Shown here: positions 6,031 through 58,900 of the stretch, in pieces
Position numbering within the stretch: the first letter of the stretch is position 1
Layout of the letters: the number at the start of each line of letters is the position of its first letter
Made by a program: the position numbers and the translations under genes
Notes under the pieces: generated by a model
Told to the model about the DNA's origin: nothing
Seen by the model: the letters and a program-made list of their open reading frames with translations, nothing else
Databases searched by the model: none
Origin: Cenococcum geophilum
Lineage: Eukaryota
Assembly: GCA_050273025.1 (NCBI GenBank)
Contig: CP158635.1
Coordinates: forward strand, 21,700,001 to 21,764,000
DNA length: 64,000 nt
Reading direction: 5' to 3'

Positions 6031-6436
6031 TAGGTCAAAAATATCGTAAAGGAAGGCAGAATCGTTTGACTTGGTCGTGCCGGGGTTTAATAAGTACCCC
6101 CCCTTCAAAACGGTAGGTACTTGTGAAATTCGCCTAGGTAGACTACCTAGGTGGCTTAAATTGCTAATAAAACTCGCTGCTATACTACATTTGGGAGCCC
6201 AGTCGCGGTTAACGCGCACGTCTCCACCTGGCCAGGTCAGACCTCCTTTTTAGTTGCTAAGACGGCCAATTTGCCCAAAATCCACCTGGGGCGTCGAACG
6301 GACAGTATTTACCAGGTGGATATCGATATCGGTGGCCCGTTCGCGACCAGGTGGGCCCAGGTAGACCCAGGTGGATTTTTTAGAGCGCCCACCTGGTGGA
6401 GTTGACCTGGCCAAAAAAAGTTATCGAACGTGCCCT

Positions 6437-18485: not shown

Positions 18486-18749
18486 ATTCTAAAGGCCTTA
18501 CCTTCTTAAGGATTTGTCTCTCTTACTAATCTATTATTAGCGACTTAGTTAATTAAGGCACGAGTATAGTATAAGGGACGCGCAAGCCTATATAATTAGG
18601 TTGTCTATAAATAAGAATCTAAAGCTAGGGAAAGAAAAGGAGAAGAAGAGTAGCGCCACTTAATGTTTTATAAGATCTTTGTGTCTTATAACCGCAATAT
18701 ACGGTAATCTGTAGCAACTTACTAGTGCGAAGTTCTGCTAAGTTCTACT

Positions 18750-19960
18750 AACTAAGTTCTGCCATTTTCTGCTAGTGCCGTAATAGCTAAAAGGATATTA
18801 ATAAGACCTATAGTAGTAAGAGCTTCCTAAAGACGTTCCGAGTTCTATTCTAGTAAATTAGATATACCGTTTAACTAAATAGATAGGACCCTATTAGGAG
18901 AAGTTAGGGCTAATCCTTATAGAAAGGAAAAAATAAAAGCTAAAATGTCCCTTTATAGAGTAAAGGTTAACTTACTAGGATTAGTGAGAGTAATAAGGTT
19001 AAAAGAGACAGTATAAGACTTCTTAGTAGTAGTAAAGCTAAATCTGGCTAAAGGGCTAGAATAGATCCTAGTAGTGCTAAAATAGGGTACCTTAGTCGCA
19101 ATTACCTTGTTAACTCCAGGAAGGTCCTCTTCGGAAGAATTAAGGTTAATTTTAACCCGCTCGCGTTTAGGTGTGGCCTTATAGCGCCGTTTACTGCTAA
19201 ATAAGTGTAGATAGGGCGTAGGAGCAGTAGATAAGGCACTAAAGGCAACAGAGCTAGAAGATGCCTTAGTAACGCCGTGTTTAGCTAAAGCGGCCCTAAT
19301 AGAGTGATTGTAATGCGGAAGTTTCTTACTGGACCCATTAAAGTAATAAGTGCCTATATAGGCCGTGAGATTATTATTTTTAAGAATATAATAGCTATTA
19401 GGGTTAATAGGAAACTAAAAGGACTAGAAGAAATTACTTATATATAAAGCGCCTTTATTAAAACTATATAAGCACCGTCTACGTTACCTTAAAGAGTCTT
19501 AATCTAGTCCGTATCTCCTTAGTTAATAGCTAAGATTAAGTCCTAAGCGAGCTTCTAAAACTTAATAGATTGGTTAAATAAGTGTTTAGGGATCTATAGG
19601 ACCAGTTAGTCTAATAAAAGCAACACTTAACTAAAAAGGTATAATCTAGATTTAATAGGAACCGACTTAGCTATAACAAAGTAAACTACTTCTAAAGTAC
19701 CTATAATAGCGAAAATTGGAAATAAACTAGGCTATATTAAGACTGGCCGCTATAGAGATAAAACAGATTATATTAAACCGTTAGACCTCCTTATTATAGA
19801 ACTGTTTAAGCCACTTTAGGAACTTAGAGAAATAATTATAGCAACCATTAGTCGTCGGGGTCTATTTTAATTTATTATTATAAATTTAGGCATAACTCTC
19901 TCCTATTACTACTATATTGGGCTAAAGGATAATAGACTTAAGTAAGTAGGTCCTAGATAA
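18750..19960 (-). pseudogene. Antisense, multi-intron Cys-rich accessory gene in the 3' region of an LTR retrotransposon
   Basis: Reading TNGCYNYFSKFLKWLKQF..IICFIS..FRYYRYFRSSLLC; putative introns end in actaac..tag and attaac..tag; Ser/Pro-rich C-terminus. Lies directly upstream of the PPT/LTR at 20291-20530. Ends approximate. Confidence 0.55.
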
Positions 19961-20304
19961 AGAAGAAAAAAAAAACTAAAAAAGAAGTAAACTATTGCTA
20001 ATTAAAGTTAGTTAAAATATTTGGGACTACAAGGGTTAGAAGTGTTAGTAAAATTATTAATAAGGGCCAAAAGAGCTTATAAAGAGCTAGAGAGGAGCAA
20101 ATTGGACTAAAAATAGGATAAAATTTAAGAATAAGTTACTAAGATTAATAAAAGAATAACTAAAGAGCTTAAAGATTTAAATTCTAGAACTATCTTATAA
20201 AATAGTGCCAAGCCACTAGTCCCTAGTCTCTTAGCTAAGAAAGCTTAATTTCTAAAGAGCCATATTAAGGATTTTGGGGTCGCAATCTGTAAGAAGGGGG
20301 GCTC

Positions 20305-20530
20305 TATTACAAATAGTAATAATTTAGTAATAATTAGAGCAGAGGAGGACTTACCACCTTATATAAGGCCTAAGTAGACCTAAGTTAGGATAATAAGGTA
20401 TATCTAGTCTAAGCTATAAATAGAATTAGACTAATTGGAGGCTTTACCTTAATCTAGTAAAGTCCTAACTAGACGGCGCTAGATAAAACCACAAGCAGCT
20501 ACTCTAGTAGGGAGATAGCTGTTCGTGATA
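20305..20530 (+). repeat. 3' LTR preceded by a polypurine tract (aagaaggggggctc, 20291-20304)
   Basis: Ends tattacaa...ttcgtgata are consistent with RIPed TGTTAC...GTGACA immediately after a PPT. Confidence 0.7.
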
Positions 20531-21037
20531 TATTAAATACGGATAGTATCCTCTATTAACCAGTCGTGCCGAGTTAAGCCTTTTTCTACTATATTAACCT
20601 TAGGAACTCCTAGTTCCTTATAGGTAAGTTATATTTAGGGGCATAAAATACGTATAGTATTATATGCTCTTTTAGATAATAGTGACTATTAATTCCATTA
20701 AGGTAGACTACGTAGTCTATATACTAATACGCCTCCCCTTAATTAGTTAGTACTTTATAAATAAGTAATTAGTATACCAAACGCGTAATTACGCGTTTGG
20801 TATACTACGTGCTATAATTATATACTGGCGGCACTTAAAAATAGACTTACTTATATATAGCCCCCGTAATTGCTTTAATAGAACCGTAAAACACAAAAGG
20901 AATATATAGGAAATCCCTCCTAAGGTGCCTTTTAGGCTGCCTTCTAAATGGTGCTCTAAGCTGGCTATAAGTCCTATTTACGGTCCGTAAAATAAACTAT
21001 AAGTGCTCCATTAGTCTCGTTCCACCCATTCTATAAC

Positions 21038-24000
21038 TATTCGTACTAACTTAATAGCACGAGTGAGTTAGATCCAGGGGTACGAAATACGTATAGTATT
21101 GTATACTCTTTTGGATAATGGTAACTGTTAATTATATGAAGCAGACTACGTGGTCTATATACTAATGCACCTCCCCCCTAATTAGTTAGTGCTTCATAAG
21201 TGCACCAGACGCGTAAGCGGGTGGTTAGTGCACTGGACGCGTAAACGCGTACCTAGTGTACCGAACGCGTAAGCACGCGGTTGGTATAATAGGTGCTGTA
21301 ATTATACACTAGCGGTACTTAAAAAATGAAACCACCTGTATACAGCCTCTATAATTGTTTTAATAAAACCATAAAATATAAAGGAAAATATATAGGAAAT
21401 AGAACTATAAGATGCAAAGGAAGTATATAGGAAACCCCCTCCCGAGGTGCCTTCTAGGCTACCTTCTAAATGGTGCTCCAAGCTAGTTATAAGTCAGATC
21501 TTAAGGGCCGCCAAGGCGCTAGTACTAAGCGAGCCAATGGCGATTTTCCATCCCGGGGATGGAAAATCGTGATTGGTCAATTTAACTACTATGGCAGAAT
21601 AATAGGCCGTATAAGCCGTACGGCCTTCTAACAGGCCGTAGACGTACCGTAAATGCTCCGTTAGTCTCGTTCCACCCATTCCGTAACTTCTAGGTTAAGC
21701 TTATTCGTATTAATTAGGGTTTTAAGGGCTTAACACGGCTTTGCCTTAGTTATGGCGTCTATTAGGTTATTTCCGCCGCTGATCTATTTAACCTCCGCAA
21801 TTTCACGTCGTTTATAGGCTTAATGTAAGCACATTAGGTCAACTATAAGCCTCTTCTCTTATATCGTACCTAGTTTAACTAGGCAGTCGTAGAGGGACTT
21901 TAAATCGGTGCATAAAACTAGGGGTAACTGCTCTAGTTGTAGAATCTTCTAGACCGTTAATTTAATTGCGGCTACTATATTAAAGCTATAAGCTAATATA
22001 TATAGTTTAGAAGCTAGTACACTGCGGGTTACTTATTTGCACTTAATTAAAGACTAATATAGTATATTTACGTCCTAATTATGGTCCGTAAGTATAATTA
22101 CAAAGCCGATCTATAATAATAGGTCTTTATTATTAGTAAAGGAGGCGTCTATAAATGCCAGTAAGCTAAGGGAACTTAGGTCTAGTGGTACAAAAGTAAG
22201 TCCCCTTACTGCATTGTCAATTTGCTACTAAATACGCTTATTAAGCTGCTTAATATTTTCTTCTTACAGATCTACTACCTAGGCCGTAAAGGATAAATTG
22301 TAGGCAGATTCGGGTTAGCAAACTGTGGCAATATAGGCGCCTCTTACACGCTATACAACGTATTAGTCCTTTATATTTACGGTCTTACGGGTCTCTCTAC
22401 AGGAGCTAGTAAGGTCTATAGGCTTTACTATAACAGGCTTTAGGTTTTAAGCCTAGCGTTCCTAAGTTAGCTTAATTAGGTTGCCCTTTTATATAATTAG
22501 GCCTCTATTAAACTTAATCGGATTCTACTTAGTTAACTACTCTTACGGCTTTGCCAAAAACTTAGCCTTTTATAGTTTAGTTTCTTTAGCGTCTATAAAG
22601 GTCTAGTCTGCTAGGAATAGGGTATTATCTATTTAAAGTCTAACAATACTAAGGCCGTTTAATAGGCTATATAGGAGGTAGGGGTCGTAGGTTAACTGTT
22701 CTATTTTAAGTTTATTAATATAGTACTAGTAGTATATCTTAAACTAATAGTTTCTAGCTTCTAGTACTCCGTATAGAGGTTTTACAACCTATAGTATTGT
22801 TCCTAGTTATAGGTTAAGCTTGGGGGGTGGCCGTATAAAGATGTCCCTACTTAGGTAGGTATTAGACTGCATATAGGCTTATAAGATATCCCGTAAGTAT
22901 AGGGCTACGGGTTTAGTTTACTGTAGTCCTGGCATAAGTGCAAGTATAATCCATTAGCTAACTTATTAAATTATAGGTAATTGCGTAAGGACTAAGTCCT
23001 TTCCTTTATCATTATAAGCTTATATAACAAGCCTTAATTTCTTAAAGGCTTTATCAGTACTAGGGTGCTTAATCTCGTTAATAAAGCATAAGTTAAATAT
23101 ACGGACGCCTTACGGAACGTCTCTCTCTATTATAACCGCAAAGATACCCTTTTTAAGTAGTCTATTAATCTCTTTACGTTATAAGTTCGTAAAAGGGGTT
23201 TCCTATACTAGAACTAATATATCTATAGGCGGAGATTGCCTTACGGATATTCCTACGGAGGTTAGATAATTCTCTATCTTAGGGTTCTTAGTTACGGGGT
23301 GCTTTTAGGGGCGTCCTCGACCACGCTTTACGGTAGGTTTAGTAGGTTTAGTGGGTTTCTAGGGGACTTCTAGGGTAGGTAAGGGTGCTTCCAGTTTATC
23401 TAATTCGGCGGTCGCTTCTAGTTCGTTTAGTTTGGCGTCATGGGTATTTTTGGGCCAAAAGTAGGGTTTTACGGACGTGCTCCTAAAGCTAGTTGGGCCG
23501 CTAGGGAGTTATACACAGCATGTCTTATCTTCTACAGCTAGTAGATGATAAGGTCCGGTTTAGTTGCCGCTCTTACGCTATATAAGGACTTTAGAATTAA
23601 GTAGGAGGTTATAAACTAAGGTTATATTGGGTCCGTTGCGGTAATATAGGGCGCTATTAACAGCTTATTTGGCCCGTAATTTAACTATTTCGGCTATTGC
23701 CTTCTATATTGCAGCTGCTTATTCCGTAATAGATGGGGCAGAAGGGCCTAGGTTGCTTATCCTTAGGTAGGCTCCATAGACTAAAAGGGTAGGTACTAGT
23801 CCGTTAGGGCTAGCGGTGTTATTAACGGCTTTTATGGCCATCTATAGAGCCAGTTCCTTTTAAATGTCCTTATATTCGTTTATAATAATCTAGTAAGCTC
23901 TCCGTAAGGCTAAGTAAGCTCGCTTAATAAGCTTAATAGACTAATACGCCTTAACTAGGACAGCTTTTATTAATATAGCTATAGCCGTAGCATACTACTG

Positions 24001-27000
24001 GAATTCCTTACTAATAAAGTTCTTACTGGCGTCGTGGGTAATATACTTAGGGGGTCTAACGTATATGTCAATCTAGTAGGTCCGTAAAATATCCCAAGTA
24101 TATTTTATAAATATATTTTGCAACTAACGGGCGGCTTAATAGCGGGTTGCCTCGTCAATTATATATAATACTAGACTGCCGTTAATATATATAATGTCTA
24201 CATATATTAAGTAGTTAAAGTTAAGGTCCTTATAAAGGGTAAACTTAAATTAGCCTAGGGAACGTCTGTATTTCTAGCAAAAAGAGCAGTATTTAGTTAG
24301 GTGGTTAATTGCCTTCCTATTGACGTTATTGTATCCAGAGCGTTTAAGGACTCTATATAGCTTTTCGGCTAACAGGTAACCGAAGCAGCGGTATAGGCGG
24401 TAGATCTTAGTACTGGTAAGGTAGCATGGGTTATAGTTAAAAGATTCCTAAATATAGGTTCGTAAAGTCTCTCTCTATATAAGGAACGGGTGTCTAAATC
24501 GTCGTATAATTAGTAGGGTAATATACTTACTTCCTAGGGCAGTTATAGGGCCAATTACGGTGTCTGTAACATTATTATAGTAGACCTATAACCTATCTAT
24601 GTCCGCAAGATAGAGTAGGAAAGGGGTGTCCGCTTTTATTACGTAGAAGTTAACTAGGCCAATTAGAGTCTTAACCGTAACTAATCTAATTAATGTAGTT
24701 AAGCCGATGCCAAATTAGACGTTTACGGCCTTAGTTTACATAACGTTAATGTCCGTATTATTATTTGTAGTGTTCCTATATATAAGGTATTATCTATAAC
24801 CTATAATAGACTTTTTAGAGGCACCTGTGTCGATTATAACACTATAGAATTCCTTAGGGGTATAGCGTTCTGTGGTAATATATGCAAATAGATCCTATTT
24901 ATGGTCCGTAACGTCTATAATAGGGGTACTTATAAATTAGTTTTTGGGCGCAATTAAGTGTATAAATAAGCGGTCGGCTAATACGGTTATAATATTAAAG
25001 GCTTAGCTATCCGTAAAAGGTCCGAAAGTAGTTAGGAACGTCTCTAAGGTCTCCTGTTCCTATATATTTAAGTTAAAGTCAATTATAAGGGCTTCCATTA
25101 ACTTATTAAGGGACTCCTCCGCTTCCTCTCCTTTATAGTCTAAGATAAACTAGTTAATCCGATTGTTAAATCTCTTCTTAGACTTATTACGTTCTTCCTA
25201 GGTATGCCTTATAGACTAACATCCTTCCTTACTGTATATAAAGCACTTCTAACTGGTTCGTTTACGGGGGTATACTTTTATACGGGAGTTGCTATAGGGG
25301 TTGCAAGTAGGACTTGGTCGGTACGGGTACTGCTAGCGGTAGCGGCGGTCCGTAAAGTAGGCATTTAAGTCAGTTTGTGGGTCTTGTAGGTCTGTAATAA
25401 AGGCTTAAATACTGCCTGGCGGGTTTAAGGCTTCGTACATTGTAATGGAGGACCGTAAATCGTTAATAAGGCTAGCTACGGTGTCTGCGGGCTTATAATA
25501 GGCGTATTTACAGGGTTCTATTTCCTAGCAAGCCGTAATAAGTTTATTGTGCAGGAAGTCATCCGTTTAAAGCTTAATATTAAGACCGTGCTATAGGTGG
25601 CGAAGGTCTTTAATAAGGATCTGCAGGCACTCTATGGTCAATTTTTTAGTGTTCTTATCCATTACGGTCCGTAACTTGGTCGCATTCCATTAGGTAAAGA
25701 TATTACGTTTATATTCCGGTCCTTTAAAGTAGTTACGTATAGCTTTATATAGCTTATTAAAGGGAACACTAAGGGGGTTACTCTTAAGGTTAGTGTAGTA
25801 GTGGTTAAGTACTAGGCCATGTAGTATGGTAGAGTAGGCTTAGCTAAACTCCTATTTAGGGATATCGGCCTTCTAACAAAGGTCCGTAAAGATAGTTAGT
25901 TTAAAATTAAAATTATCGTTTTCACTACTATACTTAGATTCGTTAGTATAGAGCTTAGCTAGGTTAGCTAGCTCCTTGCCGTAGGTCTTTACTTAAGTGG
26001 GTTGCGGGTCTATAACTTACAGATCTGTGGCTTACGGATCTGTGGCTTATAGATATATAGTTTACGGATATATGGCTTAAATAACGGAAGGGGTTTAGTC
26101 CGTAATTTGATTTACGGGGGTATTATAGTCCGTAATTTAGGTTATGGGGGTATTGCGGTCCGTAACTTGAGTACTAGGTATACTTTAGCCCGTAAGATTA
26201 ATTTCAAAATCGCTTAGGTTTATAGGACGAATTTAGTTAAGTAGGTTAGGTATAAGGCTAGTAATTATATTAAGTTTGGAAGAAATAAAGAGTTCCTTAG
26301 TTTCTTAGAACTGGTCTAGGATTTCCTCTTTAGTTTATTCCGTTTGGTCCTTCTCGTATATTATGTTGTATAAGGACTATATAACAGTAACTCGTTTATT
26401 CCTTTTAACCTATATACCTTAGTTATATAAAAGGGTTCGTAGTTTACGGATGGTAATAGGGTTATAGGCCTTAAAAATAGCTTCTGTAAAGTCCGTAAAG
26501 TCTTTCTGGTATTGCTCCTATAAGTTATTATATATAAGCTTAAAGTATTTATATTTAAGGATTTTAAAACTAATATAGTCGTTAACGTTGTTTGTAGACG
26601 TAACGTCGACTCCTTATCTCTACTTCTTTTGACCTTCGCTAACTTGCTTACTAATGTCTACCATACTATATAGTACGTGGCGGGTGGAAGAGGTCTTGTA
26701 GTAGTCCGTAAAGGTGGTTAATATCCGTAGCAGTTTGCAGAAGGGTATTATAGCGGTCCGTAGAGGCAATTAATAGGTCCGTAGTGGTTTGTAGAAGGGT
26801 AAGAGGTCTCCGTAAGGGGTCTGAGAGAGGTTAGAGGTATTGGAGGAGGGTAGGGGGTTCCGTATAGGTCTGTATTCGCGTCTATAACTTCCGATAAACC
26901 GTACTAAGACTTAAATAAGTATACAGAGTTGGTGATAGTCTGTAATCCCCGACTTCTAACCTTCTAGTAGGTCGTACTAGGAGTCTAAACAGGTAGTCGC

Positions 27001-27334
27001 TGTTGTATATCGCTTGGTGGGAGGTGTTAAGTAATTACTAATCTGTGCGCGCTTACTGATTAGTGTTCGTACTAACTTAATAGCACGAGTGAGTTAGATC
27101 CAGGGGCACGAAATACGTATAGTATTATATGCTCTTTTGGATAATAGTGACTGTTAATTGTATAAAGCAGACTACGTGGTCTATATACTAATGCACCTCC
27201 CCCCTAATTAGTTAGTGCTTTATAAGTGCACCAGACGCGTAAGCGGGTAGTTAGTGCACTAGACGCGTAAACGCGTACCTAGTGTACCGAACGCGTAAGC
27301 ACGCGGTTGGTATAACAGGTGCTGTAATTATACA
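21038..27334 (-). mobile_element. Inner full-length GalEa-clade Copia element
   Basis: 271-bp LTRs at 21038-21308 and 27064-27334; 5-bp TSD ATAAC (21033-21037, 27335-27339). Gag-pol remnant ~26885..21661 with IDTGAS protease, RLYRCFGY integrase start, RT (LYGVLEARN, *IDNTL) and RNase H, in Copia order PR-IN-RT-RH. Confidence 0.93.
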
Positions 27335-30300
27335 ATAACCTTTAGATTAAGCTTATTTATATTAATTAGGGTTTTAAGAGCTTAGTACGGCTTTACCTTA
27401 GTTATAGCGTCTACTAGGTTATCTTCGCCGCTAATCTATTTAACCTTTATAATTTTACGTCGTTTATAGGCCTAATATAAGCATATTAGGTCAGCTATAA
27501 GCCTCTTCTCTTATATTATACCTAGTTTAACTAAGCAGTTATAGAGGGACTTTAAATTAGTATATAAAACTAGGGGTAACTACTCCAATTATAGAATCTT
27601 CTGGATTGTTAATTTAATTATAGCTACTATATTAAAGCCATAAGCTAGTATATATAGTTTAGAAGCTAGTATACTACGGGTTACTTATTTATATTTAATT
27701 AAAGACTAATATAGTATATTTGCGTCCTAATTATAGTCCGTAAGTATAATTACGAAGCCAATTTATAATAATAGGTCTCTATTATTAGCGAAGGAGGCGT
27801 CTATAAATACTAGTACGCTAAGGGAATTTAGGTCTAGTGGTACAAAAGTAAGTCCTCTTATTATATTATTAATTTACCACTAAATACGCTTATTAAGCTG
27901 CTTAATATTTTCCTCTTACGGATTTATTACCTGGGCCGTAAAGGATAAATTATAGGCAGATTTAGGTTAACAAACTGTAGTAATATAGGCGCCTCTTATA
28001 CGCTATACAATATATTAGTCCTTTATATTTACGGTCTTACGGGTCTCTCTATAGGAACTAGTAAGGTCCGTAGGCTTTACTATAATAAGCCTTAGGTTTT
28101 AAGCTTGGCGTTCCTAAGTTAGCTTAATTAAGTTGCCCTTTTATATAATTAAGCCTCTATTAAACTTAATTAGAGTCTACTTAGTTAACTACTCTTACGG
28201 CTTTACTAGGAACTTAGCCTTTTATAATTTAGTCTCTTTAGCGTCCACAAAAGTCTAGTCCGCTAAAAAGTAGGTATTATCTGTTTAAAGTCTAATAATA
28301 CTAAGGCCGTTTAATGGGGTATATAGGAGGTAGGGGTTATAGGTTAACTGTTATTTTAAGTTTACTAACGTAATGCTAGTAATATATCTTAAACCAGTGG
28401 TTTCTAGCTTTTAGTACTCCGTAAAGGGGTTTTATAACCTATAAAATTGTTCCTAGTTATAAATTAAGCTTAAGAGGTAGTTGTATAAAGATGTCCCTAC
28501 TTAGGTAGGTATTAGACTACACGTAGGCTTATAAAATATCCCATAAGTAAAAAGCTATAGGTTTAGTTTACTATAGTCTAGGCGTAAATGCGAGTATAAT
28601 TTATTAACCAACTCGTTAAATTATAGGCGATTACATAAGAACTAAGTTCTTTCCCTAGTCGTTATAAGCTTATATAACGAGCCTTAATTTTTTAAAGGCT
28701 TTATTAGTACTAGGGTGCTTAATTTTATTAATAAAGCGTAAGTTAAATATACGGACGCCTTGCGGAACAACTCTCTCTATTATAACCGCAAAGACGCCCT
28801 TTTTAAGTAGTTCGTTAATCTCTTTACGTTATAAGTCCGTAAAAGGGGTTTCCTATACTAGAACTAATATATCTACAGGCGGTAGATTTTAGTACTAGTA
28901 AGGTAGTACAGGTTATAGTTAAAAGATTCCTAAATATAGGTCTGTAAAGTCTCTCCCTATATAAGGAACGGGTGTCTAAATCGTTATATAATTAGTAGGG
29001 TAATACACTTACTTCCTAGGGCAGTTGCAGGGCCAATTAAGGTGTCCGTAATATTATTATAGTAAACCTATAACCTATCTATATCCGTAAGACAGAGTAA
29101 AAAAGGGGTGTCCGCTTTTACTATGTAGAAGTTAACTAGGCTAATTAGGGTCTTAACTATAACTAATCTAATTAATGCGGTTAAGCCGATGCCGAATTAG
29201 ACGTTTACGGCCCCAGTTTGCATAGTATTAATATCTATATTATTATTTATAGTGGTCTTATATATAAGGTATTATCCGTAACCTATAGTAGACTTCTTAA
29301 AGGCACCTGTATTAATTATAACGCTATAGAATTCTTTAGGGGTAGAGCGTTCTATAGTAATATATGCAAATAGGTCCTATTTATAGTCTATAACGTCTAT
29401 AACGGGTCTAATAAGTATACTTATAGGTTAGTTTTTGGGTATAATTAAGTGTATAAAGGAGCGGTTGGCTAATACGGTCGTAATATTAAAGGCTTAGCCG
29501 TCCGTAAAAGGTCTAAAAGTAGTTAAAAATGTCTCTAAGATCTCCTATTTCTAAATATCTAAGTTAAGGTTAATTATAAGGGCTTCCATTAACTCGTTAA
29601 GAGACTCCTCTACTTTCTTTCCTTTATAGTTTAAGATAAACTAGTTAATCCGATTATTAAATCTCTTCTTAAACTTATTATATTCTTCCTAGGTATACCT
29701 TATAAACTAATATTCTTTCTTACTATATATAAAGCACTTCTAACTAGTTTGTTTATAGGGGTATGCTTTTATATAGGAGTTACTATAGGGGTTATAGGTA
29801 GGACTTAGTCGGTATAGGTATTACTAGCGGTAGCGGCGGTCTATAAAGTAGGCATCTAAGTTAGTTTATAGGTTTTATAGGTCCGTAATAAAAGCTTAAG
29901 TACTATCTAGTGGGTTTAAAACTTCGTATATTATAATAAAGAACTATAAATCGTTAATAAGGCCAGTTAAGGTGTCTATAGGCTTATAATAGGCGTATTT
30001 ATAGGGTTCTACTTCCTAGTAGGCTATAATAAGTTTATTGTATAGGAAGTCGTCTATTTAAAGCTTAGTATTAAGGCCGTGCTATAGGTGCCGAAGGTCT
30101 TTAATAAGAATTTATAGGCACTCTATAGCCGATTTTTCGGTATTCTTATTAATTATAGTCTATAACTTAATCGCATTCCATTACATAAGGATATTACGCT
30201 TATATTCTAGCCCTTTAAAGTAGTTACGTATAGCTTTATATAGCTTATTAAAGGGAACACCAAGGGGGTTGCTTTTAAGGTTGGTGTAATAGCGGTTAAG

Positions 30301-30441
30301 GGCTAGGCTACGCAGTATAGTAGAGTAGGCTTAGCTAAACTCCTATTTAGGAATATTAGCCTTCTAACAGAGGTCCGTAAAAATAGTTAGTTTAAAGTTA
30401 AAGTTATTATTTTTACTACTATACTTAGATTCGTTGGTATC

Positions 30442-33400
30442 TGTCAGATAGTTCATATAGAGCTATTCATTGATGAAATGGGTTGATTGATTGATTGTTG
30501 ACCTAGGGCCCCTAGGGCTCTATGAAGAGATTTACGATACACGTACCCCATGCACGTGACTCGTGCACGTCCTACGCCACCGAGAATACAGATTATCTGA
30601 CACACCCCCTTAGCTTCAACCTGGTCGAGGACGAAGCTAACCACCTTCTCGTGTCCGTCAATGTGTCAATTAAACCATAATCTTCTCCCTAACTCTCATC
30701 CTGTCCTTGTCATGCTCTACCTTTATAAGCACCCTTTTTATACGTGTACCTACGGCTTTAAATCCCTTAGGCCTTTTGCACTCAACTAGATACCAACAGT
30801 CAGGAAGGGTATGTCCCCTCATATCGCATACCAGGCATTTTTGGGTACTTCGACCTTTTGGAAGACGTCTCTTCAGTCAAATTTGTACCTGCCCTTTTTC
30901 GGCTGCAAGATAAGCTGTTCCTTCTTCCCTTTTGGACTTCAGTAGTAGAGATATCCTCTTCGGACTCTCCTGCGAAGTCTACGTTAAATACACTCCCTCT
31001 GGTAGTTAAGGATGGTACGACTTTTAAGAGGTTTGCGAATGCTTCCCGTAGCTCCATTACTACTTTACGGTATTCTAATGAGTGAGCCTTTTTAGTATCA
31101 TCTGCCTGTTTCGTGTACAGAACAAAATAGGTTTCGCTTATAGGTCGTATTGCATTTGCAAGGTCCATAAGCCAGATCCCATTGGTCATCTGTGAAAGCT
31201 TATACTTCTCTGCCATCTTTATTGCATGTTCCCATCGATCAAGCCACTGGGTAATTTTTGTCTCCCTAAGTCCCTTCAGCGATTCTGTGTATTGTAGCTG
31301 TACCTTCCTTATTATAAAGGTCTTTGATGGCTTAGTGTCTTCTTTTAACCGAATTAGCCATTCCTTGACTGTGAGGGAAGGGTCGAGCAGTAGCTTCTTC
31401 TAAATAAATACTGTGGACGTAATCTAGGTACGGATCTGTTGAAGATGATCTTCCTGTCTTAGGAAATACTTCATGTCCTGGTCGTAGTATCGTCTACTGT
31501 TATCGTACGCCTTCTGCTGATTCGTTGAGAGCTGTGCATATGAGGTTGCATTCTCATTAAAATCTGTGACTTCTGGATAGGTTGGTTCTTGTAGTAGACC
31601 TCGTTAAGGTGCTACATTGTCTAGGTCAACGTGGGCCCAAATTCACTAATCCACGAGGGCTCTGAGTTGCCAAAGCCATTGCTCCCAGTCTTCTAGTTTA
31701 TTAAGGACGATCGTGGTAGACGAACTCAACATCGGTGGAGTCATTTAACTAATAGGCAAATGGGAATTGTAATGGAATTCGTCGTCAGGATCGTCCTTGT
31801 CGTTAGGATCGTCCTGTGACAATTAAGGTAGAATCTCGTGGAATCTCGTGGAATCTAGTGTAATCTTGTGTCAGAATCGTCCTGTGACAATTAAGGTAGG
31901 ATTTCTATCTGAGTCTGCGTCCTAAGACGATGAGGTGTTAGAGTCTGACGATGAGGTAGAATTTCTTCAAATGATTGAGTAATAGCTGAATAGCTTCTTG
32001 TGTCGGCGGACCGGGCTTATAACTGTCAGATAGTTCATATAGAGCTATTCATTGATGAAATGGGTTAATTGATTGATTGTTAACCTAGGGCCCCTAGGGC
32101 TCTATGAAGAGATTTACGATGCACGTACCCCGTCCTACGCCACCGAGAATACAGATTACAGTAAAGCCGCGTTATACCGTTATCTTGGTATACCGTTCCT
32201 CTACGGTATAACAGTCAATAGCCATAAACAGTTAATTTTACTATGAGGTTTATAAGGCTTACGTTTAAATTTAATACGCCATTATATTTAAAGCTCTCTT
32301 ATACAAAAACGGTATAGCGCGAGCTATTATGGTGTTAAAAACTCTATTTTTAGAAGTATTAACCCCTTACTCTTAAGCCTACAAACTAGCACCGCAGCCA
32401 TTAATATTTATTAATTTAATACCCCTCTTGCCCTATATAATGGCGAAGCCTAAGGATAACCCTAAGCGCCTTTACCGCTATGGAGTTTTAGAGTATAAAA
32501 GGCAGTAAATCCGGGTATACTGCTATAAGAACCCTAAAAAACCTTAGAGAGATACTGCTCGCTTTTTTACCAATTAATTTTAACACCCTATCCAATAGTC
32601 TATTATATTAAACTCCTTAAAGCCTAAATATAAATACCTTAATTCACTAGTTCTTTAACGCGGCTAGGAGGGCTTTAAGAGGTATAGAGTTCCTAATAAT
32701 CCTAAGCTTAAAGAAGCACTATTTAAATAGCAACAGCGGATATAGGCCGCTAATATACTTATTACTAGCGACCTTATTTGGGCTATAGTAATAAAGCTTT
32801 AGAATACAATGGCATATTATTAGGGTTAATAATAGCCTAGTTTCTTAAGCGGTTGGGTTAATAACTTTAAGAAGAGGAATTAAATATTAAAACGGAAACT
32901 ATATAGTAAGGCTAGGTTAGTAAATATAGAGGGCGCTAAGGAGCGTATATAGGAGCTTAGGGTTGTTATAGATGTATACCTAAATTAAGACATTTATAAT
33001 ATGGATAAGGCAGGGCTTTTCTATAAGGCTACGCTGGATATAGGACTTATAACTATAGGGCAATTAGGTACTAAAAAGTAGAAGAAGTATATTATAACCG
33101 TCTACTATAGCAATATAGACGGTAGCTATATTATACCCCTATAGATTATTAGAAAAGCAAAGAATCCTTAATATTTTAGTATATAGCGCAGCAACCTTAA
33201 GGGCCTTAACTTTGCCTAGAGGTTTAATAAGAAGGCCTAGATAACGGCGTTAATATTCCTTAATTATATTAAGTGGTTTAACAGCTTAATAGGCGGTAAA
33301 AAGGTCCTTCTACTTATTAATTCCGCTCCTAGCTATACTAGGGGTATGCTTATAATATTAGAGCGCGCCAGCTTACTTAATACTAGGGTTAAATTCCTAC

Positions 33401-34206
33401 CTAAAAATGTTACCTCTCTCTATTAGCCTTTAGATTAGGGTATAATTTAAACCTTTAAAGCCTATTACCGCCGCTACTAGCTATCCTATATAGTAGATTA
33501 GGTAGAACAAAATAGGAACCCCCTTAAGACGATAAACATACTTAGGGCCGTTTAGTGGGCTATCGCAGTATGGTATAAAATTAGCCCTTAAACCGTAATA
33601 AATTGCTTTATATATTTAACAATCTTTAGACCCTATAAGGGCCCCTAAGGTACGCTAAGCGGGTATAGCAAGCCTTAGCTTAAGGCTGAATTAGAGGTAT
33701 ATTTATAGCAGCTTAGCCAAGTAGGGCAAATTAGGCAATTAATTCCTATTAGTAACTTTATTAATATAAATAGGGAGGACGCTTTAATAGAGCCTAAGGC
33801 CTCTATATTATAGGAAGTAATTAAGGCCTTAATTATTGCTTTATATAACGCGTTAGATAATAAAGAAAGCGATAAGGAGGTTAAGCTATAAGTTATTAAG
33901 CTTAATAAGGCTTTAGATGCACTAGAGCGCCTAAAGCTCTATAAGGGGCAGTAAGAGGATAGTAATAAGACTCTAATTACAGCTCTTATAAAGGCAGAGA
34001 GAGTAATTTAAGGCCGTTAAGCTGCGTAGGTAAGACAGACAACTATTATAAGCTTCTTTAAGTAGTTATAGATAGAGACAAGAGTTAATTTAGCCCCTTA
34101 TAGCAATTAATAAGTAAGCTAGCAATATAACGTTTCTATACGGCATAATGTTCAAACCCCCTACTACCGAGCTAAACGGTATAGCGCGGCTTTACTATAT
34201 CTGACA
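30442..34206 (-). mobile_element. Non-autonomous gag-only Copia-type LTR element, lightly RIPed
   Basis: LTRs 30442-30602 and 32024-34206 (second one split by a pogo), TGTCAGA..TCTGACA ends, TSD GTATC (30437-30441, 34207-34211). PBS gttataagccc (32013-32023, minus); PPT gaagctaagggggtg (30603-30617, minus). Gag from ATG 31744 (IVLNKLEDWEQWLWQL..) ends in knuckle CLVCDMRGHTLPDC; no pol. Confidence 0.92.
32159..34197 (+). mobile_element. pogo/Tigger-like DNA transposon, complete but RIP-inactivated
   Basis: 23-bp TIRs cagtaaagccgcgttataccgtt / aacggtatagcgcggctttacta; TA duplication (32157-32158, 34198-34199). Transposase remnant ATG 32440 to ~34065 with SGWVNNFKKR, IYNMDKAGLFY, VLLLINSAPSY and LY*PLD*GII*TFKAYYR (CENP-B HTH and DDE_1). 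Confidence 0.95.
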
Positions 34207-34210
34207 GTAT

Positions 34211-34465
34211 CCCTTGCAACGGCAGGGTCCTACGCATAAATAGCCCGTACGCGAACAACAGTTTTTCCAAACAACGCGTATGTTAATACACCACTAATAT
34301 GCCTTTTAATCGTGCCAAAGTTGATAGTGACCTTGTTCGGAAGACTTAATATAAGGTTCCTCCTAATCGCATTGCTAAAAAAGGCCCCCCGAAGCCCTTA
34401 GTCCTATTAATCCAATTGGCTAGCTCTTATCAATAACGGTAGGGCCCATTTTGCCGTTGCAAGGG
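34211..34465. mobile_element. 255-bp MITE or deletion derivative with CCC...GGG ends
   Basis: TIR cccttgcaacggca / tgccgttgcaaggg; absent at the matching site of the inner copy (~25945). Contains a short ATG-started remnant MPFNRAKVDSDLVRKT. Confidence 0.85.
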
Positions 34466-35702
34466 ATAGAGCTTAGCTAGGTTAGCTAGCTCCTTACTAT
34501 AGGTCTTTACTTAGGTAGTTTATAGATCTATAACTTAAGCGACGAAAGGGTTTTAGTTTGTATTTTAGTTTGCGGGGGTATTACGGTCTATAACTTAAGT
34601 ACTAGGTATACTTTAGCCCATAAGATTAATTCTAAGATCTCTTTAGTCTATAGGACGAATTTAGTTAAATAGGTTATCTATAAGACTAAAGATCCTATTA
34701 AGTTTAAAATAGGTAAAAAGTCTACTAGTTTTAATGTAATCTAGAATCTACTCTTTAGTTTATTCCGTTTAGTTCTCTTTACGTAGTATATTATATAGAG
34801 ACCGTATAATAGTAACTCGTTTATCCTTTTTAACCTATATACCTTAGTAACGTAAGAGGGTTTATAGGTTGTGGGTAGCTATAAGGTTATAAGCCTTAAA
34901 GATAACTTCCATAAAGTCCGTAAAGTCTTCCTTATATTATTCCCATAAATCGTTATTTAAAAGCTTAAAGTGTCTGTATTTAAGGATTTTAAAATTAATA
35001 TAGTCATTAACGCCGTTTATAGACGTAAGGTCGACTCCCTAACTCCACTTCTTTTAACCTTTGTTAATTTGCTTACTTATATCTGCTATATTATATAGCG
35101 TAGTATATTTATATAAGCTGTAACGGGCGGTAATAGCTTATAGTGGGTAGAGGAGGTCTTATAATGGTCCGTAAAATTAATTAACGGGTCTGTAATAGTT
35201 TAAGAGGTCTTATAATAGTCCGTAAAGGCAATTAATAGGTCTATAATAATTTATAGGAGGGTAAGAGGTTCTGTAAAGGTCTATATTTGCATTTATAAAC
35301 TTTTAGTAAACCGTACTAAGGCTTAAATAAGTATATAGAGATGGTAATATAGTCCGTAATCCCTAACTTCTAACATTTTAATAGGTTGTACTAGGATTTA
35401 AACGGGTAGTTACTGTCGTATATCGCTTAGGGGGAGGTATTAAGTAATTGCTAATCTATGCGCGCTTACTAATTAGTGTTTATATTAATTTAATAATATA
35501 GGTAAGTTATATCCAGGGGCACGAAATACGTGTAGTATCGTATACTCTTTTAGATGATGGTAACTGTCGATTCCATTAAGGTAGACTACGTAGTCTATAT
35601 ACTAACGCGCCTCCCCCTAATTAGTCAGCACTTTATAAACAAGTAGTTAGTGCACTAAACGCGTAATTACGCGTTTGGTATGCCACGTGCTGTAATTATA
35701 TA

Positions 35703-52953: not shown

Positions 52954-55900
52954 TGTTACGGACGCTTTAAGTACGATGTTATGACTACTTAGAGAGGAGT
53001 CGGAAGAAGCTAGTTAGTTAATTTAGGCACAGTCTAGGATGGAGCCGATAGAACTATGTGACGAGGAATGGTAACTAAGGTCACGTGGAGTGATCTATAT
53101 AATCTATACGATCTATGGGATCTGTAATAGAGTAGATAGAGCACATATATATTACATACAAGAAGGATTTTATAGGAGTACGGTTGTGTATTTAAGGACC
53201 CTTAGTCCCTACCTAGATAGTTCCTTCCTTGTAGTAATTTTTAGAATATAATTAGAGTTAATTTATTAGGCAACCACTCCACCAGTTGTTATTACGTTGT
53301 TAACTTTTATACTTATATTTCCTACATACCTAGCCCAATAACGAGCCTATCGTAGTTCCTGCTATAAGGTTCCGTTATATAATTACTACCTAGTTATAGT
53401 ATTAATATAAGAAGTCAAACAACATGCCACTAAAAGCAGCCACTACAACGCTATTAACGGTAGCAACTACTTTAAGATCAGGTAACGACACCAGCATGGC
53501 AGATACTAACTCTTAGCAACCAGTAACGGTCGGATAATTACAAGAGATAGTTAACTAGTTAATAACTAACAATATAGTGTTAGAAGAAAGACTTAACGGG
53601 ATAGGAGCGGCAAAAATTAAGCTACTATTAATTAAGAGATTTATAGGGGAAAGATTAAAGCTTAAAGGATTTCTTACGCAGATATATTTTAAGGTCTCGC
53701 AGAAAGGAGTAAAGTTACCAATACCTGTAAATCGGATAGCCTATATAGGACTATTCTTATTAGGAAAAGCACTTAAGTGGTTTAAACCTTATCTTACGGA
53801 GATATAGGCAAATAGAATAACGACCACTAACTAAGACGTGCGATTTATATTCTTAAGTTAGAAAGGATTCGCAGAGCGACTTATACAGATATTTGGAGAC
53901 CTGGAAGAAATAACTATAGCAGAAAGAAAACTCCAGAACCTCATATAATAAACTTTAGTAATTAAGTATATAACATAGTTCTAGACACTAGTAATATAAG
54001 TAGAGTGGAATAATAAGGCGCTTATGGCACAGTATAAGTAAGGACTTAAGGCTAAAGTCTAGGACGTAATTATTCTAATAGAAGATACGGACACCCTAAG
54101 GGAACTATTAAATTAGTTAATTAAGATTAACAATTAGATCTACCAAAGGGAATAGGCTAAGAGAGGTTAGGATAGAGTTTTATAGTTATATAAGGCGCAG
54201 AGTACGCAATAACAAAAGCTAAGTTAGAAACTATAGTATAGCGTAAAGCTAATAGACCTAAGTAGTACTAGAGAAGCCTATAAAAATTAGAGTAAGAAAC
54301 TATAGAAACCTAGAGGATAAGGATTAAGTAATTAAAGGTCTAAGGAGCAGAGGCCGAATTAGGGATCTTAACAGTAGAAGACATTTAGGCGGACTCTATA
54401 GCAAGAAAAATAGTTTAAAAAGGGAGCTTATATAAATTACGGAAAATAGGGTTATTACGTTAGAGACTATAGAAGTAGGTAGAGTTACTATATAGTAAAA
54501 GGCATAAGACTAGCAGACGATATACATATATAGAGGGACGATAATATACTGCGAGGAACAAAAGAATATTTAATTAGAAGTTTTACGTTTTATTATAATA
54601 ACGCATGCCGAATTTATAAGGACGCTAAGTATAGCGTAAGCTATTAGCTATAGGAGCCAGCACCTATAGGATATAGAGGAACTAATAAACCAGCTCGCAG
54701 ATTAAATATTAAGGATGATGATTTTAATATAGGCGAAGCATTCCGTAATAATAAGGCAATAAAAGCGGTCTACTGGGGACACGCAGCCATCGGAGATGTT
54801 ATACTAGAGGTAGAGGATAATTCCACTACAGAATAGGGAACATTAGTGGGGATTAAGACACCACTAGATATAATGTCTATCGCTTTATAAGACGCAAGAG
54901 AAGTAGGATAGCGAACCACTTTAGCACTCAATAAAGGCAAAAGGCTAAAGGCTTAAGATTTTTACAGCGAGATAAGAGATAACTAAGATTCTTAAGATGA
55001 GATAAGGTAAGCTTAAGGACCTATAATAGACAATAACTGATAGAGCAGAGCAATAGCTTAGTTTAGTAATATATAAATAAGCTTAGGACGAAGTTTCCTA
55101 AAGGTATAAAACTCTTAAGATGAGATAAGTGAGATTTAAGACTCTTAAGATAAAATAAGAATACTAAGTAAGCCTAGTTGGACTAAGGCTAGAGCAAAGC
55201 TTAAGTTAGAAGCAAGCTCAGGATTAAAGAATCTAAAGGGTCAAGAATTTGGAGTATAAATTAGGACACCCATAAGTAAGAGGTAAGGAGCTTCTTTATA
55301 GATTAGAGAATCTATAGCGTAAACAGTAATTAAACTAAGAGACGAATATATAGACCTAAAAGACTTACTAGTAAAATATATTATTCGGACTAAAGATCAA
55401 AGAGTTAATACTAAGATTAAGAAGTAAGAGAACTTTGAGAATCTAAGCGCAAGACGCAAACTAAAAGAAACTATAGAAGAGTTTAGACAAAGAATCATCG
55501 CATAGTAAGAACAGAAACTAGATAAGAGATCTAGTATATTAGGACGTATAAAGGACAGAGCACTAGTATAAAGAATTACTAATAGGCCTAGGGTAGGTAT
55601 ACTAAGAGCTAAGTGGCTTACTAAATTAGAAGATAAAGAGGATCTAGGAATCCTAACTAGGTTTAAAAAACAATATATAAAAGGCTGTTATAATATAGTA
55701 ATAAGAAGATACTTCCTTACGGACAAGCCGTATATACTCTAGTAGCTATACTAAAAGTAGTATAGGCAAAGGCATAATAATAAGTGGGAAGATTTCTATA
55801 TATGGTTAGATAAGAAAGTTATCTAGGACCACCTAATTATAAAAAAGGCCATAAATTATATTAAAGGAGCCTTAATTATAACGTTAAAGGATCTAGAGGA

Positions 55901-58900
55901 ACGTTTAGAGGACTAGAGAAGTAAGAGACGCATCTTAATACCTATAAATAAAGTTATAACGTTTAGATTAGCATAATAGAGGTTTAAACTTAAAGATAAA
56001 GACGAGCCAAGAGTTAACCTAAAGCACCTAGTACACTACACGTTATCATAGATTGCGTATATAGACGACATATATAAGATGTATAAGAATCTAAAAGAAA
56101 AGAATCGGAAATACCCTATAAGGATATACTGGATGACAGACAAGCGATAGTATAGGAATGCCAAATATATATATAGATGGCATCCAGCAGAGGTCCAAGA
56201 GGAAGGAAGTTTAGTACTTTAACTAGGAAGATTCCTTATAGAAGAATGCTTAGATAGACAATAGTGGTGGGAATGCCTAGAAAACATGTATCTATAGTAT
56301 ATTAAAGATAAAAAGTGAACTAGGCATTAGCTAAAGAATGAGCTAAGTGTAATAGGATTAAGCAGCTAATAGTTAGGAAAAGTAGAGGCCTATAGGACTA
56401 GAGGGAGCTAGTGGTAGAGCCTTAGACCCTTAAAGGAATTTAAGGACAACACCTAAATTTATAAGTTAAATAGTAAGATTAGCAGTTCAAAGCGCTAATA
56501 GATAGTGGAGTAATAAGGAACTATATCTTACTAGTAGTAGTTAAGAGAATAGAATTACCTTATAGACAAAAGGAGGAACCTTACCTATTAGTAACAATTT
56601 TAGGAGATCCGATAGCCTATGGAGGAGGTATTATTAATCTTAAAATAGGACCTATTTAGATAACTATTAAAGGGAGATAAATTAAGATATCTTTCGATAT
56701 CCTACTATTAGGAAGGGATAAGGCAGTATTAGGGATGCCTTAGTTATAGGAATACAATCTAAGGATCGATTAGATTACAGGTTAAGTTAATATTAGAGAT
56801 ACTTAACGCTATAAAATGTAATAATAAGCCAAGTTAGTATAGTACTAAGTAGGAGCAACTTATAAAGAAATAAAAAAAGGACTAAGTTATATACTAAAGA
56901 GATACTATAAGTATGGCAAGAAACTATAGTTACTAGAAAGTAAAAAGCTGTTAAAGTATATAGTATAGGACTATAAGATAGAATTGGAACTAGGAATAAG
57001 TCTAAAGTTCTTTCTAATCTATAAGCTTACTAAAGAAGAAGGTAGAGTACTAAAAGAGTTTGTTTAGGAGAACTTATAAAAGGGATATATTAGACCATTA
57101 TAGTTATTAGTAGATTATCCAGTACTGTTCGTACTAAAGAAAAATAGCAAACTAAGGCTGTGTATTAACTATAGACAGTTAAACAGCATTACTAGAAAGG
57201 ATAGGTATCTTTTACCCTTAATTAGCGAGATTTAAGATAGAATAGGTAATGCGTAAATCTTTACGAAGATAGATCTGAGATCGGCGTACTATTAGATTAG
57301 AATTAAGGAAGGCAACGAATAGAAGGCAGCCTTTAGGTTAAAGAAAGGACTATATAAGCCATTAGTTATACAATTTAGGCTTATAAACGCACTAGTAATA
57401 TTCTAAAAGCATATTAACAATATATTAGGAGAGCACTTGGATGAATTTATTATGGTATACCTTAACGATATTATTATCTACTTAATAACTAAGGAAGAAC
57501 ACAGAGAACACGTTAAATAGGTCTTAAAGAGACTATAAGAAGAATAGATGCTAGTAGTAATTAAGAAATGCGAGTTCTTTACTAGGAAGACCGATTTTAT
57601 TAGATTTATTATTAAACTAGGCTAACTTAGCATAGATTTAAAGAAGATTAAGGCCATAGTGAATTGGTAAGAACTAGAGAACGTTACGTAGTTAAGATTG
57701 TTTTTAGGGTTTTGTAATTACTGCAGAAGGTTTATAGCATAATAGTTAAAGAATATTAAGCCGTTTACGCGATTAATAAAGAAAGAAGAACCATGGGTAT
57801 GGGGAGAGGAATAAAGAAAACTCTTTAAGAAAGTTAAAGAGTTGTTTACCTAGGAGCCAGTTCTTAAAATCTATTAACTAGGACTAGAGACGGTTATAGA
57901 GATAGATATATTAGACTATATACTAGGGGCATACTTTATATAAAGATATTAAGATAGATAGCACCTAGTAGCATATTACAGTTAGAAGATAACACCACTA
58001 GAGTTAAACTATGACATTTATAATAAGGAGTTATTAGGTATAGTTACAGCATTAAAGAAATAGAGAGCATTCTTGCAAGGCACAGAGAAACTATTTATAG
58101 TTAAGACGGATTATAAGAATCTAATAGGATTCCTAACAATAAAGGAACTTAATTAAAGATAGGTTAGATAGGCAGAGATGCTTGCGGAATACTATTTTAA
58201 GATTTAGTATACTAAGGGTATAGATAATATAAGGGCAGATACTCTAAGTCGTAAAGCTAAACTATAGAACAATAAGAAGCCATTAGGGGCTTTACTATAA
58301 AAAGACATAGATGGATTAATTAGGTATAATTATCCGAAAATTATAGCAACTTAGGAAGAGTTAGAAAAAGTCTATAAGATATTAGAAAGCTTTTAGGTAT
58401 AAAGGATTCTAAAAGCATAACTAGAAGATTTATAAATAGATATATACAAAAATCAAGAAGCGAAGTACATCCTAAAAAGTATAGCAGAGCAGTTTATAGA
58501 AGACTTTTATAAGGGACTAACTTAAGGACATAATAAAGCTACGGGCTTAGTGTTAAGACTTTAGGAGGAGTATATTATTAATAGGATCTAGAGGATAGCC
58601 AGAAAGGTTACTAAAAAGTATTTAGATTACTAAAGAAATAAACTAATAAGGTATAAGCTATATAGAGGGCTATAACCTATTAAAACACCAGAGAGACTAT
58701 AGGAGGTTATATTATAGGACTTTATTATTAAGTTACTAAAATTAAGAGATCCTATTACCAGATAAGATTATAACGCGATCTTAGTAATAGTAGATAAGCT
58801 TACAAAGTAGGGATACTTTATAGCATATATAAAAGAAATCTTAGCGGAAGATGTCGCTAGAATCTATATTAAAGAAGTATTTATAAAATATAGAGCACTA

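Follow-up and report, generated by a model that had tools for sequence, protein, structure and literature searches.

Evidence for a multi-exon antisense gene with a six-cysteine cluster between pol and the 3′ LTR of a Ty3/Gypsy chromovirus family in Cenococcum geophilum

The window analysed here is a 64,000-nt stretch of Cenococcum geophilum DNA (GCA_050273025.1, contig CP158635.1, positions 21,700,001 to 21,764,000 of the forward strand), of which positions 18782-20622 are the dead, 5′-truncated, RIP-mutated 3′ end of an 8.08 kb Ty3/Gypsy chromovirus. Comparison of the copies of this element results in a four-exon gene of ~400 codons on the minus strand, located between pol and the 3′ LTR, in which a six-Cys exon is followed by a helical exon, a Ser/Pro-rich exon and a coiled coil. 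We consider it very likely that this antisense gene is real. Furthermore, we favour the reading, with a probability of roughly 0.55, that active ancestors of the family carried it as a functional extra gene, the product of which was an accessory regulator of the element. LTR elements of fungi are commonly portrayed as having gag and pol only.

The reference for the family is a full-length copy (L031:349-8428, 8.08 kb) containing a pair of LTRs, and 5-bp target-site duplications flank both this copy and the other full-length copy, L104. The pol of L031 matches Pfam RT, RNase H, integrase Zn and SH3 domains in the order RT-RNase H-integrase. At the integrase C-terminus, the last 32 residues of the less mutated copy P0010 match the chromodomain PF00385 (E=3.7e-5), with a score of 24 bits that lies just under the cut-off of 25.1. 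The assignment to the Ty3/Gypsy chromoviruses follows from the pol domains, the chromodomain match and the two LTRs with their target-site duplication. In the window, the polypurine tract (PPT) can be read directly from the plus strand at 20291-20301. The 3′ LTR spans 318 bp at 20305-20622 (plus strand), where it aligns with both L031 LTRs, its ends being taken from the target-site duplications of L031 and L104. The original prediction had read PPT and LTR together as 20291-20530; the PPT stands, whereas the LTR limits do not, as the LTR is longer. Its claim that this LTR is unlike the one at 52954 holds, the best match between the two being 27 nt long (E=0.005). The element had also been thought to start at 18750, but its actual start is 18782, and the DNA further left is another repeat. 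Here, at 18532-18781 on the minus strand and outside the element, lies an LTR-like piece of a different Ty3 family, matching the LTRs of L166, L167 and L169 at 72-86% in pieces. This piece, from the intact family on contig C7 described below, abuts the truncation point, which itself falls inside intron 3 of the antisense gene. As a result of the truncation at 18782, the window copy is devoid of exon 4, pol, gag and the 5′ LTR; the distance from pol to the PPT is ~2.3 kb in the family, and the window retains the final 1.5 kb of it.

A genome search with the region between pol and the PPT, in which all 28 of 28 candidates were scored, gave 33 matches that were grouped by position into 17 copies. 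Relative to the reference copy, these 17 carry 4238 transitions and 411 transversions, with C-to-T changes concentrated before A, and the window copy has a TpA/ApT ratio of 1.88. The transition excess, the preference for C-to-T before A and the TpA/ApT ratio are the signature of fungal RIP. Contig C7 carries one lightly mutated copy (GC 49%), which consists of rearranged pieces and is possibly a mix of more than one insertion. A metagenome scan added the full-length, RIP-mutated L104 and the partial L105, the two confirmed among 584 pattern matches. As had been proposed, the segment is linked to both the element and its LTR: pol 3′ end and Cys exon occur together in the examined DNA of 13 of the 17 genome copies (the others being truncated, or their examined DNA incomplete), and 16 of the 17 continue into the LTR. 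In a two-LTR copy, L032:567, ~1.5 kb are missing, which takes away most of gag together with the end of the 5′ LTR, whereas pol and the antisense gene are retained.

All parts of the gene model lie on the minus strand and are described here in the direction of its reading. A probable 5′ untranslated region occupies 19916-20290, with a possible intron ending near 19998; it contains 11 inherited transversions (defined below) and, in 6 copies, a 1-nt insertion. We infer a start codon at 19915, which is ATG in 2 of 18 copies and ATA elsewhere. The ATG at 20263 was dismissed as an alternative start, being probably RIP-made (it is GTA in L105). Exon 1 (19667-19915, 83 codons) encodes the cluster CX2C-X22-C-X18-CX2C-X6-C(C) and is stop-free in the lightly mutated copy. 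It is followed by intron 1 (19594-19666, 73 nt, phase 0), with the signals GT...ACTGAC/ACTAAC...TAG and 3 inherited transversions, the junction type of which is also found in two other families. Exon 2 (19442-19593, 50 codons plus 2 nt) starts with Ile-Pro, is helical-looking and contains zero inherited transversions; two stop columns common to all copies covering them lie within a part of it that is absent from the lightly mutated copy. Intron 2 (19395-19441, 47 nt, phase 2) has agreeing donor and acceptor phases, its donor being GTAAGT in 2 of 15 copies and ATAAGT in all the others, including the window copy. Exon 3 (18812-19394, ~194 codons) is rich in Ser, Pro and Ala, contains a basic KRR cluster and ends in a helix-like stretch; in the window it has a 153-aa open frame. 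Two natural stop-free metagenome ORFs, P0008 and P0011, extend over exon 3, and their mutual divergence begins inside the predicted intron 3. Of this last intron, the window has the first 30 nt before the truncation (18782-18811); elsewhere it is 54-55 nt long and in phase 0, with a 1-nt indel common to several copies. Exon 4 (~75 codons), seen in other copies only, has a coiled-coil-like stretch. Its stop codon position is uncertain, with an alternative possible ~57 codons further on.

The earlier reading of at least three intron-like segments agrees in number with this model, which supports introns at 19666-19594, at 19441-19395 and from 18811 onwards. The three branch-point/AG segments from a scan of the window fit it in part: one is intron 1 and one is the possible 5′ untranslated region intron, whereas the AG of the third looks RIP-made, with TGTGG at this site in 3 of 18 copies. 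The restored frame had been expected to be open, and this is what we find: the 352 model codons covered by the lightly mutated copy are free of stops, a count that leaves out its 10-nt and 1-nt deletions, and exons 1, 3 and 4 have no stop common to all copies. Counts of invariant stops over the heavily mutated copies are uninformative until exon boundaries are set.

The predicted Cys pattern CX2C-X22-C-X18-CX2C-X6-C is present on the minus strand at 19843-19676, and the window copy has TGC/TGT at three Cys positions and TAT/TAC at the other three, exactly as read before. Sixteen copies cover the cluster. Their codons are TGC (11), TAC (4) and CGC (1) at C1; TGT (5) and TAT (11) at C2; TGT (8) and TAT (8) at C3; TGT (2), TAT (13) and TAG (1) at C4; TGC (5) and TAC (11) at C5; and TGT (2) and TAT (14) at C6. 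TGY or its RIP product TAY is thereby found in 94 of 96 codon cells, and none of the six is Cys in fewer than two copies. In the lightly mutated copy, a seventh Cys directly follows C6. When the segment was resampled 300 times with a Markov model, a relaxed motif allowing [CY] arose once; it also has 5 further, noise-like matches within the 64 kb window (~0.1 per 1.5 kb). Because of these other sites, the window copy alone is weak evidence for the cluster, and it is the comparison of copies that carries the case.

Constraint on the exons was assessed by counting transversions, since RIP hides transitions, in 19 sequences (the 17 genome copies, L104 and L105). Transversions common to at least two copies were probably inherited from active lineages. 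Such inherited transversions are found at 3 of 1209 nt in the exons and at 18 of 1083 nt in non-coding sequence (p=0.0006), and the difference is also seen with introns only (3 of 174 nt, p=0.029). The exon rate is similar to that of pol (11 of 3099 nt, p=0.77). As an internal control, singleton transversions show no contrast (62 of 1209 nt in exons, 55 of 1083 nt in non-coding sequence). The upstream region holds 11 of the 18 non-coding inherited sites, and omitting it gives p=0.045. Frameshifting indels common to copies are restricted to the upstream region, intron 3 and the spacer that follows pol, with none in the exons. Within the upstream region, a 6-copy subfamily differs at 14 sites and by a 1-nt insertion, all confined to the stretch corresponding to window 19990-20195, which suggests that the antisense 5′ region has undergone template switching or recombination, or changes fast.

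At the RNA level, 4 of 24 listed runs (X9, X10, X11 and X21) were compared with the exon-1 region, where the exact matches are two pieces from unstranded contigs (284 and 252 nt). The 284-nt contig, identical in X9 and X10 (which may be one data set), crosses the possible 5′ untranslated region intron unspliced. The four runs contain no splice joint at the exon-1 region and no piece covering intron 1, and splicing is therefore described here as predicted. The one of these runs that consisted of raw reads gave zero reads on the element part within the 12% of reads examined.

Searches for relatives of the protein returned element copies as the only matches to the gene in the host genome. The Cys exon has no homologues among longer proteins (47 candidates), near-length proteins or the ESM Atlas, no Pfam family at E up to 5, including Zn_clus, and no PDB match. 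Pfam DUF3716 matches neither exon 1 nor the L175 and L177 clusters introduced below, in a comparison whose sensitivity is reduced by RIP damage. A lone match among 1.84 billion representatives, the 558-aa repeat protein P0007 (E 2e-5), is limited to 29 residues around the first CX2C and was dismissed as chance. IMG/VR yielded relatives of neither exon 3 nor the integrase end, every look-alike of P0011 among the Atlas structures has a TM of at most 0.24, and a single-sequence AlphaFold2 model was unusable (pLDDT 34).

A genome search with RT, in which 110 of 9818 candidates were scored, resulted in 12 stretches that were sorted into further families. Two of these, L174/L175 and L176/L177, are Ty3 families with antisense six-Cys clusters (RT 50-53% identical). 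Antisense to pol, six-Cys genes with clear introns lie at L175:5800-7085 and L177:5950-8020, and the splice signals of the L175 family are textbook (20 of 40 listed copies compared). In both families, the cluster ends in C-x2-C-x6-C-x2, followed by a phase-0 intron and then by Val-Pro or Ile-Pro. In the present gene, three residues separate the sixth Cys from a phase-0 intron (two, if counted from the seventh), and Ile-Pro stands on the far side of the intron; we had noted this intron-1 junction before the two families were found. The acidic tail of the L175 family has 5 of 6 inherited changes at third codon positions and a common indel that is in frame. Compared with the present gene, the L174-L177 genes have shorter spacers, are shorter, and end in acidic or low-complexity tails. 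Their similarity to it is marginal, being reached by 8 of 300 and 23 of 300 shuffles for the two families, while none of 300 shuffles reaches the score of the two families against each other. Hhalign among four families gave scores within the shuffled range, with the present family's exon 1/exon 2 boundary placed off by one base.

The family at 52954-60798 of the window was originally paired with the present element as an unrelated one with the same antisense gene layout. The elements are unrelated in their LTRs but not overall, as both are Ty3/Gypsy. Their RTs are only 38-40% identical, and the 52954-60798 family is on a long separate branch of the RT tree (read without row F2_MG1, a different match in that locus). 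Its gene has the pattern CX2C-X6-C-X13-CX2C-X8-C (20 of 40 listed copies compared). A system shared between the present gene and that at 59720-60390 finds no support in the different Cys spacing, a BLASTP E of 0.15 and hhalign scores within those of shuffled sequences, although both sides are RIP-damaged and may still be remote homologues. The proposal of a recurring accessory system thus survives through the two further families that share the exon junction, and not through the family at 52954. This junction, conserved across three families, provides a search signature.

In an intact Ty3 family of the same genome, pol and the LTR are only ~225-480 bp apart (in the 3 of 4 copies whose LTRs are resolved), which leaves no room for the gene. 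The gene is therefore dispensable for some Ty3 elements here, and this gene-less family is a natural comparison. Its copies L166-L169 (G000:C7, about 0.40-0.80 Mb), with open pol frames of 626-1404 aa and LTR pairs that are 98.7-99.6% identical, lie towards an end of contig C7. The lightly mutated copy of the present family is nearby, and the region seems to escape much RIP. A different arrangement is found at L171:5880-6880, where ~970 bp behind pol include a tandem repeat of ~125 bp in a sister of the L175 family in the RT tree. This one copy has no Cys motif; gene loss or replacement is possible. The antisense layout thus recurs across families, in at least two subtypes, and is optional.

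The layout as such is already published. Boty-like (BcGypsy1) Ty3/Gypsy elements of Botrytis cinerea and Sclerotinia carry an antisense gene, brtn (Zhao et al. 2011, PMID 21802103), as described in passages of papers citing that work (PMC8365987, PMC7264820, PMC4227169); extra ORFs of BcGypsy families are depicted in Figure S1 of PMC8365987. From these descriptions, both brtn and the present gene are extra antisense genes between pol and the 3′ LTR of a chromodomain-bearing fungal Gypsy element, and in the present family this ORF is kept in most copies. The present gene has four coding exons and ~400 codons, and this large six-Cys gene would be a larger variant of the published layout. Among plants, antisense aORF-3R genes such as maize Grande gene23 and those of rice RIRE2, Silene Retand and PvRetro13 share the position, the orientation, the retention in most family copies and a proposed accessory role in the account given in parts of PMC7264820. 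They differ in their plant hosts, and a six-Cys cluster is not mentioned in those parts (PMC7264820). The same source treats the role of antisense extra ORFs as an open question for fungi and plants alike. Neither 'antisense' nor 'zinc' appears in the main text of a fungal survey (PMC3248453), and we found no description of a six-Cys antisense protein in the literature searched, which lay largely outside subscription journals.

Several properties of the predicted protein point to what such a gene might do. The Zn(II)2Cys6 (Gal4 type) motif is CX2CX6CX5-12CX2CX6-8C. The present protein resembles this class in its near-N-terminal CX2C...C...CX2C-X6-C followed by a basic cluster and a coiled coil, but its spacers are 22 and 18 residues long, where the motif has 6 and 5-12, and it has no Pfam match. 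As the spacers differ from the canonical motif, DNA binding is not implied. In the proposed mechanism, a promoter in or beside the 3′ LTR would drive an antisense transcript of the gene, which would then be spliced. In the sense genomic RNA, the introns of an antisense gene stay in place, so that reverse transcription copies them at each transposition and they would survive it. The Cys cluster would bind zinc, the basic KRR cluster would direct nuclear entry, and the C-terminal coiled coil would oligomerise the protein, which would then tune LTR transcription or the chromatin silencing of the element's copies. The 3′ LTR probably holds or adjoins the antisense promoter; antisense promoters in or beside the 3′ LTR have been reported for other retroelements, as cited in PMC7264820. 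For an accessory regulatory role acting specifically on the element's own transcription or silencing, as predicted from sequence features, we would put the odds at about even. More tentatively, and with clearly lower confidence, these genes may represent an old and hitherto undescribed family of spliced antisense zinc-cluster accessory proteins in fungal Ty3/Gypsy chromoviruses. One subtype (last Cys, phase-0 intron, [IV]P) would have been inherited along one RT branch and a differently spaced one gained separately on a distant branch, both acting as nuclear regulators or anti-silencing factors. If true, the family would be a fungal counterpart of the antisense regulatory genes of complex retroviruses.

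Other explanations have to be weighed against the accessory regulator. A gene that is real and under selection could encode a protein acting elsewhere, in RNA export, particle assembly, nuclear import or the blocking of host RNA silencing. We give this a minor but appreciable share of the probability, about one chance in a few. The evidence for a real gene from Cys codons, indels and transversions applies to it equally, the non-canonical Cys spacing and the absent Zn_clus match would suit it, and roles of this kind are given for retroviral accessory proteins in parts of PMC7264820. Against it, the product of a plant antisense ORF is nuclear, as stated in the same source (PMC7264820). Gal4-type regulators, moreover, have an order of parts similar to that of our model, in which an N-terminal Cys6 precedes a linker carrying a basic cluster and then a coiled coil. 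It is rather unlikely that the segment travels as a passenger, a fragment captured from a host gene, and that the antisense RNA, acting through double-stranded RNA control, matters instead of a protein. In its favour, the introns point to a cellular origin, PMC7264820 discusses a role at the RNA level, and one Ty3 family thrives without the gene. Yet the constraint tracks exon boundaries and reading frame, the host genome matches are element copies only, and in the L175 family the acidic-tail changes fall at third positions (5 of 6) and the common indel is in frame.

Least probable of all, and unlikely in our view, is a coding strand that is the plus strand, with a sense third ORF of which the Cys pattern would be an antisense shadow, or a chance reading of Tyr as Cys in RIP-mutated DNA. 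In the lightly mutated copy, the plus-strand mirror frame does run open over 109 codons; it also looks coiled-coil-like near the PPT, and the relaxed motif matches 5 other sites in the window. However, in the same lightly mutated copy this frame has 3 stops, one of them a TGA, against 0 in the minus-strand model, and it has 1, 3 and 2 stop columns common to all copies in exons 1, 2 and 3. The coiled-coil-like reading is broken by a 1-nt insertion common to several copies, and phase-matched splice signals lie on the minus strand. The accessory regulator encoded on the minus strand remains the reading that we prefer.

Beyond the element, the window contains several nested repeats after the LTR, at 20619-35702, including the pairs 21033/27059, 21684/27336 and 20619/35497. 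Further left, a 47-nt inverted repeat pair at 2793-2839 and 6385-6431, 91% complementary and 3545 nt apart, possibly marks the ends of a DNA transposon.
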